Below are positions 1,063-33,034 of a DNA stretch of 33,034 nucleotides, in pieces. The notes under the pieces were generated by a model that was given only the letters and a program-made list of their open reading frames with translations, made no database searches and was not told the origin of the DNA. Each line of letters opens with the position of its first letter. Position 1 is the stretch's first letter. The position numbers and the translations under genes are program-made. The stretch comes from Thiomargarita sp. (GTDB taxonomy: Bacteria > Pseudomonadota > Gammaproteobacteria > Beggiatoales > Beggiatoaceae), in contig DZAL01000018.1 of NCBI GenBank assembly GCA_022729575.1, forward strand, positions 1,290 to 34,323. Reading direction: 5' to 3'.

Positions 1063-1104
1063 ATCGTTGTCGTTGCCGTTGTCGTTGTCGTTGCCGTTGC
1101 CGTT
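1063..1104. repeat. Hexanucleotide simple-sequence repeat (GTCGTT/GCCGTT)x7 immediately 5' of the GumN/TraB start codon (minus strand)
   Basis: Direct reading of gtcgttgccgttgtcgttgtcgttgccgttgccgtt; lies in the 5'UTR/RBS region of ORF 168..1058. Confidence 0.85.
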
Positions 1105-1173
1105 GGAGTCCGGAATTTATTCCGTTAGAATCCGAAATTGTTCTCGCGGCCAACGGAATAAATTCCGGACTCC
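1105..1173. repeat. Perfect 22-bp inverted repeat hairpin GGAGTCCGGAATTTATTCCGTT...AACGGAATAAATTCCGGACTCC (loop ~25 nt)
   Basis: Direct reading; shares GGAGTCC/GGACTCC termini with hairpins at 12963-12988 and 25270-25323. Confidence 0.85.
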
Positions 1174-1288
1174 AAAATCAAAATCATAACACAAATGCCA
1201 TACGGGACTCAAGAGTCCCGTGCGATTTGAATACTATAGCAAATCTCACTTGATTGAATATCATTGACTTGATACTTCTTTACTCATC

Positions 1289-3220: not shown

Positions 3221-3402
3221 CTCACCTTACGTACTTTTAATTCAACCACCCCCAACCCCTCCTTGGTAAGGAGGGGAGTACGCACTACCGGCACCGCCAG
3301 GATACCCCCCTCCTTACCAAGGAGGGGTTGGGGGTGGTGGTGCGTAAGGTGAGTTATTTAGATTTATTTAGATTTGACAACTTTCGAAAAGTTGTCAAAT
3401 CT
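3221..3402. repeat. Family-B nested-hairpin element (3221-3356) followed by one 33-bp palindrome (3370-3402)
   Basis: Direct reading; CACCTTACGTAC...CCACCCCCAACCCCTCCTTGGTAAGGAGGGG...CCTCCTTACCAAGGAGGGGTTGGGGGTGGTGGTGCGTAAGGTGAG. Confidence 0.85.
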
Positions 3403-6065: not shown

Positions 6066-6277
6066 TTACACCTTACGCACAACCACCCCCAACCCCTCCT
6101 TGGTAAGGAGGGGAGTACGTACCACTTGAATTATAGGGTTGACTCCCCTCCTTACCAAGGAGGGGAGTACGTACCACTTGAATTATAGGGTTGACTCCCC
6201 TCCTTACCAAGGAGGGGTTGGGGGTGGTTGTACGATTTGACTCAGATTTGACAACTTTCAAAAAGTTGTCAAATCTA
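6066..6277. repeat. Family-B element with internal tandem duplication of a ~52-bp unit (ACTTGAATTATAGGGTTGACTCCCCTCCTTACCAAGGAGGGGAGTACGTACC) followed by 33-bp palindrome (6245-6277)
   Basis: Direct reading. Confidence 0.85.
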
Positions 6278-7487: not shown

Positions 7488-7610
7488 AGATTTGACAACT
7501 TTTTTAAAACCAGATTTGACAATCTTCAGATTTGACAACTTTTTGAAAGTTGTCAAATCTTTCTTTTCGAAAGTTATCAAATCTTTCTTTTTGAAAGTTA
7601 TCAAATCTTT
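7488..7610. repeat. Cluster of full and half-site copies of the 33-bp palindrome (AGATTTGACAACTT...; degenerate GAAAGTTATCAAATCT x2)
   Basis: Direct reading. Confidence 0.85.
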
Positions 7611-8503: not shown

Positions 8504-8891
8504 AGATTTGACAACTTTGCGAAAGTTGTCAAATCTCTCTAACTCACCTTACGCACCACCACCCCTAGCCCCAATGCCATTAAGTTAAGCCTGCGAAAGA
8601 AACCTTGAAGGTCTAAAACCAGACCTTCAAGGTTAAAACCAGACCGGAGGATTCCCCGCCTTCTTCTCGTTTCCACGCGCCAGCGTGGGAACGAGAAGAA
8701 CTCTCTAACATCTCTTTAAGACTCAGATTTGACAACTTTTCGAAAGTTGTCAAATCTCCTAACATCTCTTTAAGACCCAGATTTGACAATCTGGTCAAAA
8801 GTTGTCAAATCTCTAACACCTCTTTAAGACCCAGATTTGACAACTTTTCGAAAGTTGTCAAATCTAACATCTTTTTAAAAATATCAAATCT
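8504..8891. repeat. Composite repeat block: 33-bp palindrome (8504-8536), partial family-B, family-E hairpins (GCCATTAAGTTAAG...ACCTTGAAGGTCTAAAACCAGACCTTCAAGGT; TTCCACGCGCCAGCGTGGGAA), then 3 tandem palindrome copies with ~21-bp near-identical spacers (8725-8865)
   Basis: Direct reading; the same family-E sequences occur inverted at 24050-24330. Confidence 0.8.
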
Positions 8892-9200
8892 TAATTCTTA
8901 AATCTCTTGTGTTTTTTTTTAAATTATAATATATTTTTTAGTAAGCAAAAGACTAATTAATAAATTTTTACTATTTCCACTATCTGAAAAAACTTTTTTA
9001 TGCTAAACAAGAAGATAATAATATTTGGAGATTGGCATATTTTGGAATGTTATTGATAATAGCCATGGCTATTCCGCTTTTTACGTATAAAAATCTTTCT
9101 AAAAAATTTCTAAAAAATACTGCTTATCAATTTTTATCACAATAGACCCAGATTTGACAACTTTTCGAAAGATTGTAAAATCTAAACCACCGGCCCGATT
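8892..9200 (+). promoter_or_regulatory. ~300-bp AT-rich, A-tract-rich region upstream of giant HK gene; likely promoter/curved-DNA regulatory region; contains one degenerate palindrome copy (9150-9183)
   Basis: Markedly lower GC than flanks; T9 run, short direct repeats TCTAAAAAAT x2. Confidence 0.4.
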
Positions 9201-12200
9201 ATGTTTAAACAGCTCAAAATACGTTCGAAACTGCTACTGGTAATGTTATCTATCAGTTTAATCCCAATTATCCTGATGGGTACTACCATGCTCATCAAAA
9301 GTCGCCAAGCACTGATGCAACAATCCTTTAGTCAATTAGAAAGTGTCCGCGAAATAAAAAAATCCCAACTGGAACGTTTTTTTAACCGACTTCGCAATGA
9401 CATGGCGATCCTCTTAGAAATGGTCTCCATTTCACGACAAAATGCCGCGCAAAAATTGCAAACCGTACAAGAAAATAAAAAAGCACAATTAGAACGCTAC
9501 TTTCAAGAACGTTTAACGGATATTAAGGTACTCTCCGAAAATGACTCCATCGCTCAATCGTTGGAACAATTTAACGGTGCCATCGCCATGGAAGAGCATA
9601 AAATTAAAGGAAATGCTTGGCACTTAGTCGTGGAAAGGTTTGGCCAAGAGTTGACACAGTATAAAGAGAAACAGAATTATTACGATTTATTACTATTAAC
9701 CACCGACGGCACCATAGCCTATACCGTCGAACAACGAGGAGATTTAGGAGAAAATGTAAACACCAGTAAAATTCAACATAATAGCTTGAGTGAAGCATTC
9801 CATCAGGCGATGAAGACCAAAACCGCCGTCATTCGAGATTTTGCGATTTATCCACCGGCGGAAAATCACTACCTGGCCTTTCTCGCCACCCCAGTTTTTC
9901 GCTCTGGTGAAGTAGTCGGATGCCTAGCCTTGGCCCTGTCGGCTGAGGCGGTAAATGCGATTGTGCAGCGCCAAGAAGGGATGAGTAATACCGAAGAAAC
10001 TTTTGTCGTGGGCGAAGACGAGGGACGTATCAGCTATCGCAGTGACCGAGTATTTAAATGGAGTAATCGCAACGTCATCGATCAAGAAGTGACTGGCTCT
10101 GATATTAATGAAGCCTTGGCTGGTCGTAGCAATATTGCCATTAAAAACGACCAAAGTGGCAAACTAGAATTAGGTGCCTACGCACCTTTACAAATTCCCG
10201 GCTTACATTGGGGCATTATCACTTCCATTGCGTTGGAAGAAATTATTACGCCCAAATTGGCAGGACAACAAAGCGATTTTTTTACCAACTATATCACTCA
10301 AAATAACTATTATGACCTCCTACTCATTCATCCTCAAGGCGAAATTTTTTACTCAGTCAAACACGAAGCAGACTATGGCACGAACATTCTGGCTGGTAAA
10401 TTTGCTAACTCTAATCTCAGTCAATTAGTACAAACGGTATTACAAAATAACGAATTTGCGATCAGCGATTACGCGCCCTATCCTCCTGCTAACCAAGCTC
10501 CAGCAGCGTTTACTGCGCAATCTGTATTACGCACTGACCACACCGTTGAACTTATTGTGGTACTTCGCTTAAGCGAAAATAATATCAATCGTATTATGCA
10601 GCAACGTGCTGGGATGGGCAAGACCGGTGAAACTTATCTGGTCGGTAGTGACAAGTTAATGCGCTCGACCACTTTTTTATCACCCAACACCCACTCCATG
10701 ACCGTCTCCTTTGCTCACCCCGATAAAGGCATAGTTGATACTGAAAGTAGTCGCGCTGCGTTACGTGGTGAAACCGGCGAAAAAATTATTCAAGATTACC
10801 AAGGCCATTGGGTATTATCAGCTTACACTCCCATTCAAATGGGTAGCCACACTTGGGCACTGTTAGCGGAAGTTAATCTGACGGAAGCCTTTGCCTCCGT
10901 TTACACCTTACAGTGGATGCTAGGTGGTTTAATCATCCTCGTGGTCTTAACTGTACTTTGGCTAGTAAGACGTTTTATCAAAAATTTCATGTCCCCGCTC
11001 TTAGAAGTCAACGAACATTTGAAAACTCTGGCCCAGGGTCAACTAAGTGACACCGACATTATTTATTACCAACACGACGAGGTGGGCGAAATTGTGACCT
11101 CTTGTAAACGATTAAAAGAAGCCATTCGTAGCACCATCCAACAAGCCAATGAAATTGCCGCCGGCAACTATGAAACTCAAGTCTCTTTACTGTCTTATGA
11201 AGACCAATTAGGCAATGCGTTAACCGAAATGGTTCGCACTTTACGTGCGGTGATAAAACAAGCCAATGCCATCGCCGCTGGCAATTATACGGAAACCATT
11301 CAACCTCTCTCCGACCGTGACCAGTTAGGTAACGCCCTGTCACAAATGACTAAAACTTTGTGCGAATTGACCGCGAAGAATGCCTTGGAAGACTGGTTGA
11401 AAACCGGGCAAATGCAACTCGCTAAAGAGCTTAGTGGCAACCCCAATATCACGACTCTAGCTAATAACATCATCAATTTTCTCTGTCATTACCTAGAAGC
11501 TAAAGTAGGGCTATTTTATTTAGTGGAAGAAGTTCGCTCCAAACCAAACCATACCGACCATAATAGCGACCACCATAACACCGGAGTACCAAGCGAAGCT
11601 TTATCCCAACAATTAAAATTGTTAGCCAGTTATGCCTACACCTGGCGCAAACATCTAGCCAATCGTTTCGACTTTGGAGAAGGAATCGTTGGCCAAGCAG
11701 CTTTAGAGCAACAACCCATTATCCTCACCCAGGTCCCTCTTGAGGCCATTCATATTCAATCGGGACTGATTGACAATGTGCCACGCCAAGTGGCGGTTAT
11801 ACCATTTTTATACGAAGGCAAGGTAAAAGGAGTCGTTGAATTAGGTTTCTTCAATGAAATCGTGGAACGACAATTAGAATTTTTGGCTACCGCCATGCCC
11901 AGTATTGGAATTGCCGTGAATACCGCCGAATCCAGAACCCAATTACAAGAATTATTGCAACAAAGTCAAGTTCAAACCGAAGAATTACAATCTCAAACCG
12001 AAGAATTACAATCTCAAACCGAGGAATTACAGAGTCAACAAGAGGAGTTACGAGAAGCTAATGAAGAATTAGAAGAGCGGACCCGTGAATCAGAGCGGCA
12101 ACAACGAGAGGTGCAAGAACAAAATCGAGTGTTGGAACAAAGTCAGCTAATTTTGCAAGCTAAAACTAACGAGTTAGAATTGGCTAATAAATACAAATCC

Positions 12201-14303
12201 GAATTTCTGGCCAATATGTCCCATGAATTGCGGACCCCATTGAATAGCTTATTGATTTTAGCGCAAATTTTAACGGAGAATAAAGCCGGTAATTTGACCA
12301 GCAAGCAAATTGAATACGCCCAAACTATTCACAATGCCGGGAATGACCTACTCACACTGATTAACGACATCCTAGATTTATCCAAAGTAGAATCTGGTAA
12401 ATTAGAAGTCCATTGGGAAGAGGTGCCGCTACTAGATTTCATGGACGGTACGCGACAAAAATTTCAGCATGTGGCGGAACAAAAAAAGCTTCTCTTCCAA
12501 GTGGATATTAGCGAGGACCTGGCCGAAGTGGTTTTGCACACCGATGGACAAAGGCTCAAGCAGATTATTAATAATCTATTGTCGAATGCGTTTAAATTCA
12601 CCCCCAAAGGTCAAGTTAAGCTAGAAGTAAAGCGAGTTAACCGCGATTCCTGGGCCGGCACCAAAGATGGCTTCTTTGAACAACATACCAACCTGTTAGC
12701 CATCACCGTGGCCGACACTGGTATTGGCATTCCCAAAGATAAACAAAACCTAATTTTTGAAGCCTTCCAACAAGCCGATGGCACCACCAGTCGCCGTTAT
12801 GGCGGCACCGGCTTAGGATTAACCATTTCTCGCCAATTAGCGCAACTCCTGGGTGGCAAGATTCTTTTAGACAGCGGCGAAACTCAAGGCAGCCGCTTTA
12901 CCTTGTATTTACCGGTGAGCCCGGTAAAGAAAACTACTCTGGTCCCGTCAGATCACCAGACGGGAGTCCAAGACATGTCTTGGACTCCAACCCACGCTCC
13001 GCGTGGGAGCGCCCAGACCGAACTTCAAAGCGTCGCGTCGCCAGTAGCAGAGGAGCTAGAAACCGAGAAAAATTTATCACTCACACCGCCGACCATACCC
13101 AGCGATGATAGAAATAACCTCAGCCCTAACGACAAAGTTATCCTCATCATCGAAGATGACCAGAAATTTTCAGCGATTCTCCTGGAATTGACGCATGAAA
13201 AAAATTTCAAATGCTTGATTTCTGAAGACGGTAAAACTGGCCTACAACTGGCGGAAAAGTATCAACCCAGTGCGATTATTCTGGATATTAGTCTGCCACA
13301 AATGGATGGCTGGACGGTGATGGAAAAACTTAAGGATAATCCTAAAACTCGTCATATCCCAGTACATTTTATGTCGGCTTCACACCAAGATATGTCAGCC
13401 AAACGCATGGGAGCCATTGGTTATCTACTAAAACCGGTGAATATCGCCGAAATTACTGAAGCATTTAAGAAAATTGAACAATTTATCACTCGGACCGTCA
13501 AGCACTTATTATTAATAGTAGATAACTCGGTGCGACAACAACAAATTCTGGAACTTATTGGCGCAACTGAGGTACAATTCGATACCAGTGCTACGGTCCA
13601 CACTGCATTGCAACAATTGCATCATCAATCGTATGATTGTATTATCCTAGATGCCGAAGTAGAAAATAACACCGGGTTTAAATTTTTAGAACAATTACAT
13701 CAATCGGACCAATTGGCTCAAATTCCAGTTATCATCTATACCGAAAGAGAGCTCACTGCTCAAGAAGAGTTATTATTGCAACGTTACGCGGACAATTTAA
13801 CCGTCAAAACTGTGAAAACGCCAGAATGTTTACTAGATGAGGCCATGTTGTTTTTACACCAATTGGAAGCCAATTTGTCTAAAGAAAAACGCACGATGTT
13901 ACGGCGCCTCCATGACAAAGAAGCGATTTTAGCCCATAAAAAAGTGCTACTGGTGGATGATGATATGCGTAATACCTTTGCGCTGACCACCATTTTAGAA
14001 GAAAAAGAGATGGAAGTATTGATTGCGGAAACCGGCACCGAGGCCTTGGCGTTACTCAATGAATTACCGGACGTTAACCTGGTGTTGATGGACATTATGA
14101 TGCCAGAAATGGATGGATATGAAACGATTCGACAAATCCGTGCCCAAGCGCGATTTCGTAAATTACCTATCATTGCGTTGACGGCGAAAGCGATGAAAGG
14201 AGACAAAACTAAATGTTTAGAAGCCGGCGCTAATGACTATTTGGCTAAACCAGTAGATATTGATAAGTTGATGTCGTTAATGCGAGTGTGGCTGTATCGG
14301 TGA
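9201..14303 (+). CDS. Giant hybrid sensor histidine kinase: TM1 - two tandem periplasmic Cache-like modules - TM2 - tandem HAMP - GAF - coiled coil - HisKA - HATPase_c - three receiver (REC) domains
   Basis: TM at aa ~10-30 and ~575-595; duplicated NYYDLLL..DG.I.Y periplasmic modules; IAAGNY..DQLGNAL HAMP x2; [11 protein letters not shown]-box; GGTGLGL G2-box; REC signatures ILIIEDD/ILDISLPQMDGW, LLIVDNS, VLLVDDD/LMDIMMPEMDGYE...KP. Confidence 0.85.
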   Translation: MFKQLKIRSKLLLVMLSISLIPIILMGTTMLIKSRQALMQQSFSQLESVREIKKSQLERFFNRLRNDMAILLEMVSISRQNAAQKLQTVQENKKAQLERYFQERLTDIKVLSENDSIAQSLEQFNGAIAMEEHKIKGNAWHLVVERFGQELTQYKEKQNYYDLLLLTTDGTIAYTVEQRGDLGENVNTSKIQHNSLSEAFHQAMKTKTAVIRDFAIYPPAENHYLAFLATPVFRSGEVVGCLALALSAEAVNAIVQRQEGMSNTEETFVVGEDEGRISYRSDRVFKWSNRNVIDQEVTGSDINEALAGRSNIAIKNDQSGKLELGAYAPLQIPGLHWGIITSIALEEIITPKLAGQQSDFFTNYITQNNYYDLLLIHPQGEIFYSVKHEADYGTNILAGKFANSNLSQLVQTVLQNNEFAISDYAPYPPANQAPAAFTAQSVLRTDHTVELIVVLRLSENNINRIMQQRAGMGKTGETYLVGSDKLMRSTTFLSPNTHSMTVSFAHPDKGIVDTESSRAALRGETGEKIIQDYQGHWVLSAYTPIQMGSHTWALLAEVNLTEAFASVYTLQWMLGGLIILVVLTVLWLVRRFIKNFMSPLLEVNEHLKTLAQGQLSDTDIIYYQHDEVGEIVTSCKRLKEAIRSTIQQANEIAAGNYETQVSLLSYEDQLGNALTEMVRTLRAVIKQANAIAAGNYTETIQPLSDRDQLGNALSQMTKTLCELTAKNALEDWLKTGQMQLAKELSGNPNITTLANNIINFLCHYLEAKVGLFYLVEEVRSKPNHTDHNSDHHNTGVPSEALSQQLKLLASYAYTWRKHLANRFDFGEGIVGQAALEQQPIILTQVPLEAIHIQSGLIDNVPRQVAVIPFLYEGKVKGVVELGFFNEIVERQLEFLATAMPSIGIAVNTAESRTQLQELLQQSQVQTEELQSQTEELQSQTEELQSQQEELREANEELEERTRESERQQREVQEQNRVLEQSQLILQAKTNELELANKYKSEFLANMSHELRTPLNSLLILAQILTENKAGNLTSKQIEYAQTIHNAGNDLLTLINDILDLSKVESGKLEVHWEEVPLLDFMDGTRQKFQHVAEQKKLLFQVDISEDLAEVVLHTDGQRLKQIINNLLSNAFKFTPKGQVKLEVKRVNRDSWAGTKDGFFEQHTNLLAITVADTGIGIPKDKQNLIFEAFQQADGTTSRRYGGTGLGLTISRQLAQLLGGKILLDSGETQGSRFTLYLPVSPVKKTTLVPSDHQTGVQDMSWTPTHAPRGSAQTELQSVASPVAEELETEKNLSLTPPTIPSDDRNNLSPNDKVILIIEDDQKFSAILLELTHEKNFKCLISEDGKTGLQLAEKYQPSAIILDISLPQMDGWTVMEKLKDNPKTRHIPVHFMSASHQDMSAKRMGAIGYLLKPVNIAEITEAFKKIEQFITRTVKHLLLIVDNSVRQQQILELIGATEVQFDTSATVHTALQQLHHQSYDCIILDAEVENNTGFKFLEQLHQSDQLAQIPVIIYTERELTAQEELLLQRYADNLTVKTVKTPECLLDEAMLFLHQLEANLSKEKRTMLRRLHDKEAILAHKKVLLVDDDMRNTFALTTILEEKEMEVLIAETGTEALALLNELPDVNLVLMDIMMPEMDGYETIRQIRAQARFRKLPIIALTAKAMKGDKTKCLEAGANDYLAKPVDIDKLMSLMRVWLYR
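11973..12035 (+). repeat. In-frame 21-bp tandem repeat x3 (CAAACCGAAGAATTACAATCT) encoding heptad QTEELQS x3 in the coiled-coil linker preceding HisKA
   Basis: Direct reading; 21 bp = 7 aa = one coiled-coil heptad. Confidence 0.9.
12944..13007 (+). repeat. Three consecutive hairpin palindromes embedded in-frame in the HATPase-REC linker of the giant HK (CCCGTC..GACGGG; GGAGTCCAAGACATGTCTTGGACTCC; CCCACGCTCCGCGTGGG)
   Basis: Direct reading; motifs match intergenic hairpin families (GGAGTCC..GGACTCC; CCCACGCG..CGTGGG at 8676-8697 and 24060-24320). Confidence 0.75.
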
Positions 14304-18780: not shown

Positions 18781-18936
18781 CTACGCGGTCAGGACTGGCA
18801 GTCCTTTGAGGACTGCCAATCCTAGGTTCTAACTACGCGGTCAGGACTGGTAGTCCTTTGAGGACTGCCAGTCCTAGGTTCTAACTACGCGGTCAGGACT
18901 GGCAGTCCTTTGAGGACTGCCAGTCCTAGATTCTAA
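18781..18936. repeat. Three tandem 52-bp units, each a 15/15-bp inverted repeat AGGACTGGCAGTCCT TTG AGGACTGCCAGTCCT (hairpin), preceded by TGAATGGTAAAA x2 at HK stop
   Basis: Direct reading. Confidence 0.9.
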
Positions 18937-27489: not shown

Positions 27490-27760
27490 AGATTTGACAA
27501 CTTTCGAAAAGTTGTCAAATCTTTCTTCGTAAAGTTTCCGATTTGACAACTTTCGAAAAGTTGTCAAATCTTTCTTCGTAAAGTTTCCGATTTGACAACT
27601 TTCGAAAAGTTGTCAAATCTTTCCTCGTAAAGTTTCAGATTTGACAACTTTCGAAAAGTTGTCAAATCTTTAGTTCGAAAGTTCCAGATTTGACAACTTT
27701 CGAAAAGTTGTCAAATCTAGCTCACCGATTTGACAACTTTCGAAAAGTTGTCAAATCTTA
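27490..27760. repeat. Six tandem copies of the 33-bp palindrome between convergent genes; spacers are duplicates of the yyaL stop-codon flank (TTCTTCGTAAAGTTTCC)
   Basis: Direct reading; likely bidirectional terminator array. Confidence 0.9.
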
Positions 27761-32936: not shown

Positions 32937-33034
32937 AGATTTGACAACTTTTTGAAAGTTGTCAAATCTAAGTAGCCAAAGCAGATTTGACAACTTTTTG
33001 AAAGTTGTCAAATCTAAGTAGCCAAAGCAGATTT
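32937..33034. repeat. Tandem copies of the 33-bp palindrome (period 47, spacer AAGTAGCCAAAGC), truncated by window end
   Basis: Direct reading. Confidence 0.9.

Follow-up and report, generated by a model that had tools for sequence, protein, structure and literature searches.

How does a cluster of DNA palindromes come to lie in the middle of a signalling gene, to be translated there, and to leave the gene intact? This question is raised by a 33,034-nucleotide stretch of a Thiomargarita sp. genome (contig DZAL01000018.1; "the window" below means this whole stretch), in which the gene of a hybrid sensor histidine kinase carries a run of hairpins between the codons for its HATPase_c domain and those for its first receiver (REC) domain. 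We conclude that positions 12963-13007 are very probably a copy of a repetitive extragenic palindrome (REP)-type element that landed within the gene. The case is an in-frame repeat event of a known kind, that of REP elements and their REP-associated tyrosine transposases (RAYTs), with behaviour like that of the Rickettsia palindromic elements. An earlier model-made reading of the letters (the sequence-only reading) had placed translated palindromes at 12944-13007, and the sequence there is as it described: the region is read in the frame of the open reading frame (ORF) at 9201..14303 as ...LVPSDHQTGVQDMSWTPTHAPRGSAQ..., the hairpins covering residues ~1249-1269. The features of the locus are as follows.

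9201..14303, forward strand: hybrid sensor histidine kinase gene, 1700 aa (ORF and translation), with its frame intact across the insert
12915..13103, forward strand: linker from HATPase to the first receiver (REC1), residues 1239-1301, 63 aa, predicted disordered
12908..12928, forward strand: additional hairpin TTTACCGG-tgagc-CCGGTAAA, 8-bp stem, at the HATPase/linker boundary
12943..12965, forward strand: hairpin 1, TCCCGTC-agatcacca-GACGGGA, 7-bp stem and 9-nt loop
12963..12988, no strand assigned: hairpin 2, perfect palindrome GGAGTCCAAGACATGTCTTGGACTCC, 26 nt (13+13), of a REP-type repeat family of Beggiatoaceae
12991..13007, forward strand: hairpin 3, CCCACGC-TCC-GCGTGGG, 7-bp stem, of the CCCACGC..GCGTGGG family and here the right half of a composite
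12963..13007, forward strand: most likely inserted unit, 45 nt or 15 codons (GVQDMSWTPTHAPRG), made of the palindrome (26), AA and hairpin 3 (17)

The hairpins in the kinase gene

All three hairpins of the sequence-only reading are present, with some changes of dimension. Hairpin 1 is real and has a stem of 7 bp, not the 6 bp given to it; its right arm has 3 nt in common with the start of hairpin 2. What had been called an 11-bp perfect palindrome is indeed perfect, and in the folded state has a stem of 11 bp and a loop of 4 nt, but its length is 26 nt. The 7-bp stem CCCACGC..GCGTGGG was described correctly. A fourth hairpin, at 12908-12928, had been missed; its left arm falls in the codons of the conserved LYLP with which HATPase_c ends. 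It has no family relatives, and we rejected it as a repeat-family member because its sequence is unique.

RNA structure prediction, which the sequence-only reading had named as a check, gave -37.3 kcal/mol for an 81-nt stretch of the region, against -23.5 +/- 3.3 kcal/mol for shuffled sequence (z = -4.17; 0 of 200 shuffles were as stable). Perfect hairpins of at least 8 bp are concentrated outside genes in the window (the 4.8 kb of non-coding DNA has 48, the 28.2 kb of coding DNA has 6), and the 13-bp palindrome in the kinase gene is the sole perfect hairpin of more than 8 bp in coding sequence. Shorter stems are a different matter: the kinase gene has 17 distinct centres of 6-bp stems against 9 +/- 3 in codon shuffles, and hairpin 1 taken alone is near chance level. 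Neither its stem pair CCCGTC..GACGGG, nor its junction, nor its loop has a copy in 1.2 Mb of related loci. Since it has no relatives and its stem size is near chance, we do not count it in the element, and the ~64-nt extent first proposed gives way to one of 45 nt. Two readings of hairpin 1 are left, host linker sequence and a secondary quasi-palindrome. We also considered whether 12920-12942 (CCCGGTAAAGAAAACTACTCTGG) could be a degenerate member of the CCGGCTAAAGCCTCTACTCC family; allowing two indels, the two agree at ~15 of 22 bases, and the orientation misfits the composite described below, so we make no such claim.

A dispersed REP-type family in the Beggiatoaceae

The 26-nt palindrome belongs to a large dispersed family. 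GTDB (one genome per species) was scanned with the pattern GGAGTCCAAGNNNNNNCTTGGACTCC, and metagenomes were scanned for the ACNNGT subfamily. The GTDB scan gave at least 101 copies in at least 97 genome stretches, with flanks that are unrelated among copies. Among the matches listed nearly all are from Beggiatoaceae (two Thiomargarita nelsonii assemblies, MAG115, S06.Bin195, Parabeggiatoa and other Thiotrichaceae metagenome-assembled genomes, or MAGs), with one hit each in Crenothrix, a Methylococcales MAG and an Anaerolineae MAG; no cyanobacterial genome is among the 97 genome stretches listed for the 26-mer pattern. The metagenome scan gave 92 copies in 83 stretches, almost all from one Baltic Sea sample, and 79 of these are identical to the 26-mer of the window. 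The sampled family thus exceeds 190 copies (193), with at least several to dozens of them in each of MAG115, the two T. nelsonii assemblies, S06.Bin195 and the Baltic organism. The last of these has every repeat family of the window, which makes it a fairly close relative. Loop variants differ from genome to genome: ATAAAT/ATTTAT in the marine ones, ACNNGT in S06.Bin195 and CCTAGG in MAG 134-614. The head GGAGTCC is common to several subfamilies of the palindrome, among them the window hairpin at 1103-1175. As RNA the 26-nt palindrome folds at -17.7 kcal/mol.

Intergenic copies tend to lie just past the 3' ends of genes. Convergent gene pairs hold 38 of the 120 copies that could be classified (32%) against a background of 104/655 (16%), and divergent pairs 8 of 120 (7%) against 85/655 (13%); the median distance from the 3' end of the facing gene is 43 nt. 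A transposase of the expected type is also found in a relative. In locus L033, from Thiotrichaceae MAG 134-614, a 178-aa ORF at 394-927 matches RAYT proteins by the NCBIfam equivalog model NF047646 (REP-associated tyrosine transposase; 83.6 bits, cut-off 80), by Pfam Y1_Tnp (2.4e-9) and by PDB entry 4er8, E. coli TnpA-REP (3e-13). Full palindromes at 80-105 and 986-1011 bracket this ORF, and several partial copies lie between them, upstream of the RAYT gene. Finding a RAYT gene between copies of its own palindrome is the usual mark of a REP family (PMC3116915). From the placement at gene 3' ends, the common GGAGTCC head and the RAYT gene flanked by copies we take the palindrome to be a REP-type element. 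The kinase insert, which the sequence-only reading had called a small structured repeat, can thus be named more precisely as a REP-type element with a RAYT transposase.

More than 170 distinct copies have no direct duplication in their flanks, and there is no target-site duplication at 12963/13007. Instead the flanks tend to be complementary to each other, with a mean extension of the palindrome by 1.2-1.4 bp against ~0.33 bp expected, up to a maximum of 10 bp; in 13 of 98 GTDB copies the extension is 4 bp or more. These complementary flanks would reflect either insertion into existing hairpins or growth of the palindrome. Many copies (among loci L002-L181) form the centre of larger palindromes that are specific to the copy. 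No Rfam family matches anywhere in the window, and a literature string search with the palindrome returned unrelated primer sequences only and no paper citing the family sequence.

One recurrent neighbour of the palindrome may be noted separately. A multi-copy gene of ~500-600 aa, with a weak Ig-like match (Pfam Big_13, below cut-off), ends in ...LPTGQYCLFGILSPE...GLWV..(K/Q)C(F/L)E(I/V)F* in six translated copies (L051, L080, L143, L150, L164 and L178), and in these six, from S06.Bin195 and the Baltic organism, a palindrome lies 7-15 nt past the stop codon. Locus L016 was grouped with them because it is similar in sequence upstream of its palindrome. Either these paralogs have, it seems, spread along with their 3' REP, or they attract it. 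As a candidate mobilising enzyme the gene was rejected, given that it has no transposase match and only the sub-cut-off Big_13 one.

The boundaries of the presumed inserted unit

Hairpins 2 and 3 are, on sequence comparison, one unit. Along 46-47 nt, positions 12963-13008/9 have 100% identity with at least 15 intergenic copies of a composite repeat in the Baltic organism (E ~7e-20). BLAST coverage is essentially zero to the left of 12963, leaps to ~390 matches exactly at that position, falls after 13008, and homology is over by 13010. In the Baltic organism the palindrome is recurrently embedded in CCCACGC..GCGTGGG hairpins, as ...CTCGTTCCCACGCGGAGCGT + palindrome + AACCCACGCTCCGCGTGGGAACGAG... 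and as the reverse complement of this composite. The oriented consensus of 37 copies agrees with the window only from the palindrome rightwards.

The segment 12963-13007 (GGA...GGG) begins and ends on codon boundaries, encodes GVQDMSWTPTHAPRG, has no stop codon in any of the six frames, and folds at -31.2 kcal/mol. Its right edge (13007 or 13008) is best placed by the reading frame. A fixed 42-nt unit (the palindrome and AACCCACGCTCCGCGT) inserted after GCGT would also suit the frame in the window, but it misfits the copies in L154 and MurB that are described below, and we did not adopt it.

A linker that varies in length

The order of domains in the kinase is dCache (Pfam dCache_1), HAMP, GAF, a coiled coil, HisKA (999-1066), HATPase_c (1115-1240) and three REC (Response_reg) domains. 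Its homologs come from Beggiatoaceae (Parabeggiatoa, Halobeggiatoa, Thiomargarita, Marithrix and Venteria) and not from cyanobacteria; full-length orthologs exist in the family, with conserved synteny. In 43 homologs the linker between HATPase_c and the first receiver measures 27-111 aa (median 54), and the linker sequences are not alignable. An AlphaFold2 model of residues 1064-1483 has confident HATPase and REC folds, separated by residues 1245-1296, which have no secondary structure and a predicted local distance difference test score (pLDDT) below 50, with values of 30-39 over the insert. The small repeat thus lies in frame in an interdomain linker, as the sequence-only reading had it.

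The nearest orthologs are P0001 (61% identical; from the Thiotrichaceae MAG S06.Bin195, with conserved synteny) and P0002 (66% identical; partial, with a highly similar REC1). The 90% cluster of the kinase protein consists of itself and one fragment. Without the insert the linker would be 63 - 15 = 48 aa long, which is the length of the P0002 linker; given how variable these linkers are, the match could be coincidence.

Copies read in frame in other genes

The kinase is not the only gene with a copy in it. The Baltic organism has four mid-gene in-frame copies with Pfam domains on both sides (L109 at 5143, L154 at 1684, L120 at 4458 and L110 at 8030). One is in MurB, between FAD_binding_4 and MurB_C; another, a composite in opposite orientation, lies between the TPR repeats and the transferase domain of a TPR-GT41 protein; the third is in mid-gene in a GT2 multi-domain protein; and the fourth, in a GH94 (cyclic-glucan-synthase-like) protein, reads GVQDMSWTP, which is the frame used in the window. 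In MurB the alignment gives a clean, unique insertion of 12 aa (QV-HLTPESKTCLGLLEN-ENEWF against QVxGPxNEWF) that is absent from 41 Beggiatoaceae orthologs, and MurBs in the PDB have a gap at the same place. Verified mid-gene copies make up 4 of the 193 sampled (~2%). A few others sit in terminal tails, as in GTDB copy L076, in the C-terminal tail of YidC. Three further GTDB candidates for intragenic copies (L075, L004 and L006) are without Pfam support and were taken as spurious ORFs, and a protein search for translated repeat copies with a 50-aa query found no candidate.

The same kinase linker carries a different repeat family in the P0002 lineage. Its DNA (L182 2722-2865, JGI 3300036981) holds three copies, two direct and one inverted, of CCGGCTAAAG(T/C)CTC(T/C)AGTCC, also written CCGGCTAAAGCCTC(T/C)AGTCC; they are translated as PAKVSSP, PAKASSP and GLEALAG, and the inverted pair makes a stem of 23 bp. 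The core of this family, CCGGCTAAAGCC, has 129 matches in 40 related loci. The kinase linker of S06.Bin195 has no repeat match. With a REP-type copy in the linker of the window and unrelated repeats in that of P0002, the same linker has been colonised independently by two families in two lineages, and the idea of repeat-driven linker change put forward in the sequence-only reading gains support. A second small repeat family was also seen translated within a core enzyme: the MurB ortholog P0125, from an NCBI genome, has an in-frame insertion with PAEASSP three times, which is the translation of tandem CCGGCTGAAGCCTCTAGTCC repeats as in L029.

It follows that palindromes termed extragenic can be carried in frame, as in the kinase linker, MurB and three glycosyl-transferase/hydrolase proteins, and they offer a concrete and datable source of changes in linker length. 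For annotation, odd short peptides such as GVQDMSWTP, ESKTCLGL and PAEASSP are repeat-derived in these genomes. A wider proposal is that in Beggiatoaceae the REP family, together with the CCGGCT(A/G)AAGCCTC(T/C)A(G/C)TCC family, regularly supplies new linker and loop sequence, beyond rare accidents. We regard this as speculative and rather unlikely; if it were true, different families would repeatedly colonise the same signalling-protein linkers and the loops of core enzymes such as MurB, and the imported mRNA hairpins could also affect translation between domains.

Origin of the unit in the kinase gene

The most likely course of events is that a RAYT-type transposase carried a REP unit of two hairpins, in single-stranded form, into a linker that tolerates changes in length. 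Arrival by insertion is suggested by the sharp homology and by the other in-gene copies, and the RAYT gene of a relative points to such an enzyme as the probable agent in the source genome as well. The unit would have kept the frame open, survived, and now be translated as GVQDMSWTPTHAPRG, presumably as a neutral passenger and not as a selected feature; nothing requires a selected role for the mRNA hairpins. The kinase gene would have stayed intact because the length of the unit is a multiple of three, because there is no stop codon in any frame and because the linker tolerates the change.

Several observations weigh against this account. The left half of the composite (CCCACGCGGAGCGT) is missing at the kinase site, and the kinase block may therefore be a fragment, or the product of recombination instead of clean transposition. 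The homologous block, at 46-47 nt, is not a multiple of three, so that we infer the exact boundary of 45 nt. The link to a RAYT was seen in one relative only, beside a different loop variant (CCTAGG); the 33-kb window of the source genome contains no RAYT gene and one copy of the 26-mer, apart from its sister hairpins. The family head is GGAG(TCC), unlike the GT(A/G)G head of those enterobacterial and pseudomonad REPs that have been characterised, though the GT(A/G)G head may be a feature of the clades that have been studied and perhaps not universal. Finally, the comparison with orthologs yielded no empty site, no ortholog above 61-66% identity being present in the collections, and in the alignment with P0002 the length difference is scattered across several gaps instead of falling in one.

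Some of these points lead to the most serious competitor of transposition by a RAYT, namely that the repeat block reached the linker as a copy made through recombination, gene conversion or template switching between palindromic repeats, and that the unique hairpins at 12908-12928 and 12943-12965 are by-products of quasi-palindrome correction. It would account for the presence of only the right part of the composite with a sharp left edge at the palindrome, for the two extra unique hairpins that adjoin the insert, and for the varying extents of the composite in intragenic copies (36 nt net in MurB, ~55 nt in L154). The excess of complementary flanks would likewise suit either palindrome growth or insertion into existing hairpins. 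Neither a donor sequence nor a recombination junction is identifiable, however, and a related genome has a cognate RAYT with copies on both sides, which represents the established route by which REPs spread; we therefore hold this alternative to be the less plausible one, with perhaps a minor share of the probability. A different kind of explanation is that the hairpins are kept for an action in the mRNA, either as a ribosome pause between kinase and receiver or as a site of internal processing or termination that would give a kinase-only product. The local structure is strong (the unit and the 81-nt region alike, by the energies given above), family members between genes lie at gene 3' ends, where REPs affect mRNA stability, and the linker of the nearest ortholog also has a long hairpin with a 23-bp stem. 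But the linker of the S06.Bin195 ortholog has neither the repeat nor a comparable hairpin, the two structured linkers have unrelated sequences, no Rfam family is matched, and chance insertion into a tolerant linker accounts for everything seen, so that such a role is distinctly improbable.

Two more trivial explanations carry still less weight. Repeats commonly cause misassembly and the source is a metagenome, which might suggest that a repeat was wrongly joined into the gene; but frame, domain order and synteny on both sides agree with the orthologs, the protein is recorded on three contigs, and an identical kinase protein is encoded on JGI metagenome contig 3300000236 (L001), which differs from the window at 3 of 17,326 nt and has the insert. 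Because this second assembly carries it, we do not believe the insert to be an artefact, and the chance that it is one is very slight. Least probable of all is that the palindromes are coincidental, low-complexity sequence of a variable linker with no repeat family behind them. The linker is hypervariable, and hairpin 1 and the 8-bp hairpin at 12908 do have no family. For 12963-13007, on the other hand, coincidence is refuted by the perfect identity of 46-47 nt to so many loci, and shuffles of the window never reproduced the motifs.

Comparison with known repeat systems

The REP and REPIN elements mobilised by RAYTs (TnpA-REP) in E. coli and Pseudomonas (PMC3116915) resemble the present family in being short palindromes (26 nt here) with many dispersed copies, mostly intergenic and near 3' ends, in sharing a conserved head over several subfamilies, and in having a RAYT gene flanked by the same palindrome. 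Unlike them, the Beggiatoaceae unit is a perfect and not an imperfect palindrome, its head is GGAGTCC, and it often lies within hairpins of a second family or is fused to them; moreover ~2% of sampled copies, and the kinase copy too, lie in frame in mid-gene, whereas REPs are extragenic by definition. The result is a REP-type family of giant sulfur bacteria that is named, delimited and tied to a RAYT transposase.

Rickettsia palindromic elements are palindromic repeats that are translated in frame in unrelated genes, at positions compatible with the fold (PMC10969869), and the in-frame behaviour seen in the kinase linker and in the MurB, GT41, GT2 and GH94 proteins is like theirs. That behaviour alone is in common, and size, host clade and intragenic frequency all differ: the Rickettsia elements are ~100-150 bp long, Rickettsia-specific and frequently intragenic, while the Beggiatoaceae element measures 26-45 nt, is rarely intragenic and has a RAYT associate. 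[quoted passage not shown] Thiomargarita nelsonii (PMC4853749), as have TAACTGA repeats in marine Beggiatoaceae (PMC4679880). The kinase unit is like MITEs in being a structured, non-autonomous repeat able to sit in genes, but it is much smaller and has neither separate terminal inverted repeats nor a target-site duplication; the MITE that does occur in the window (24128-24233, with an 8-bp duplication) looks different from it.

There is also a likeness to the small dispersed repeats SDR1-8 of cyanobacteria, the subject of Elhai et al. 2008, which are said to be hairpin repeats of 21-27 nt, nested in one another and occasionally inside genes. To our knowledge no association of these repeats with a transposase has been reported. 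The likeness to our family (very small, nested hairpin repeats that are occasionally in genes) is one of description. Beggiatoaceae have mobile elements in common with cyanobacteria (PMC4679880 and PMC5108060).

Other repeats in the window

Hairpins 2 and 3 were said at the outset to match intergenic repeat families elsewhere in the window, and both do, as the following features attest.

1103..1175, forward strand: intergenic GGAGTCC-headed hairpin TTGGAGTCCGGAATTTATTCCGTT ... AACGGAATAAATTCCGGACTCCAA, a sister subfamily also present in related genomes
25270..25323, forward strand: intergenic 23-bp hairpin with GGAGTCC/GGACTCC ends and an interior that is unique in the sample
24068..24085, forward strand: intergenic CCCACGC..GCGTGGG hairpin, intact copy (CCCACGCGCTGGCGTGGG)
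24115..24246, forward strand: second copy, a CCCACGCGCTGGCGTGGG-type hairpin split by a MITE-like element
8661..8700, forward strand: intergenic variant copy of the CCCACGC family, TTCTTCTCGTTTCCACGC-gcca-GCGTGGGAACGAGAAGAA

GGAGTCC occurs three times in the window, and in every case it forms, together with GGACTCC, the outer ends of a hairpin (1105-1173, 12963-12988 and 25270-25323), and GGAGTCCGGAATTTATTCCG of the 1103-1175 subfamily has 12 + 5 copies in related loci. The motif GCCATTAAGTTAAG gave 115 matches in 54 related loci. The MITE-like element at 24128-24233 is ~106 nt long, with terminal inverted repeats of 15 nt (TGCCATTAAGTTAAG / CTTAACTTAATGGCA), and is bordered by an 8-bp direct duplication, GCGCTGGC (at 24120 and 24234); this is a classic case of a MITE inserted within a REP-like hairpin.

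The window also has a very abundant hairpin of 33 nt, AGATTTGACAACTTTCGAAAAGTTGTCAAATCT, whose arms occur in ~21-23 copies (1-123, 7488-7584, 8507-8860, 9150-9183, 19585-19746, 27490-27758 and 32937-33034), often in intergenic tandem arrays with a period of ~43-49 nt. The gaps between its hairpins are only ~9-19 nt, too short for CRISPR (clustered regularly interspaced short palindromic repeat) spacers. It occurs also in Baltic contigs (L115) and in S06.Bin195 (L047). Other intergenic hairpin families of the window are CCCCTCCTTGGTAAGGAGGGG, with long nested inverted repeats at 3245-3338, 6093-6217 and 24510-24600, and AGGACTGGTAGTCCTTTGAGGACTGCCAGTCCT at 18843-18927.

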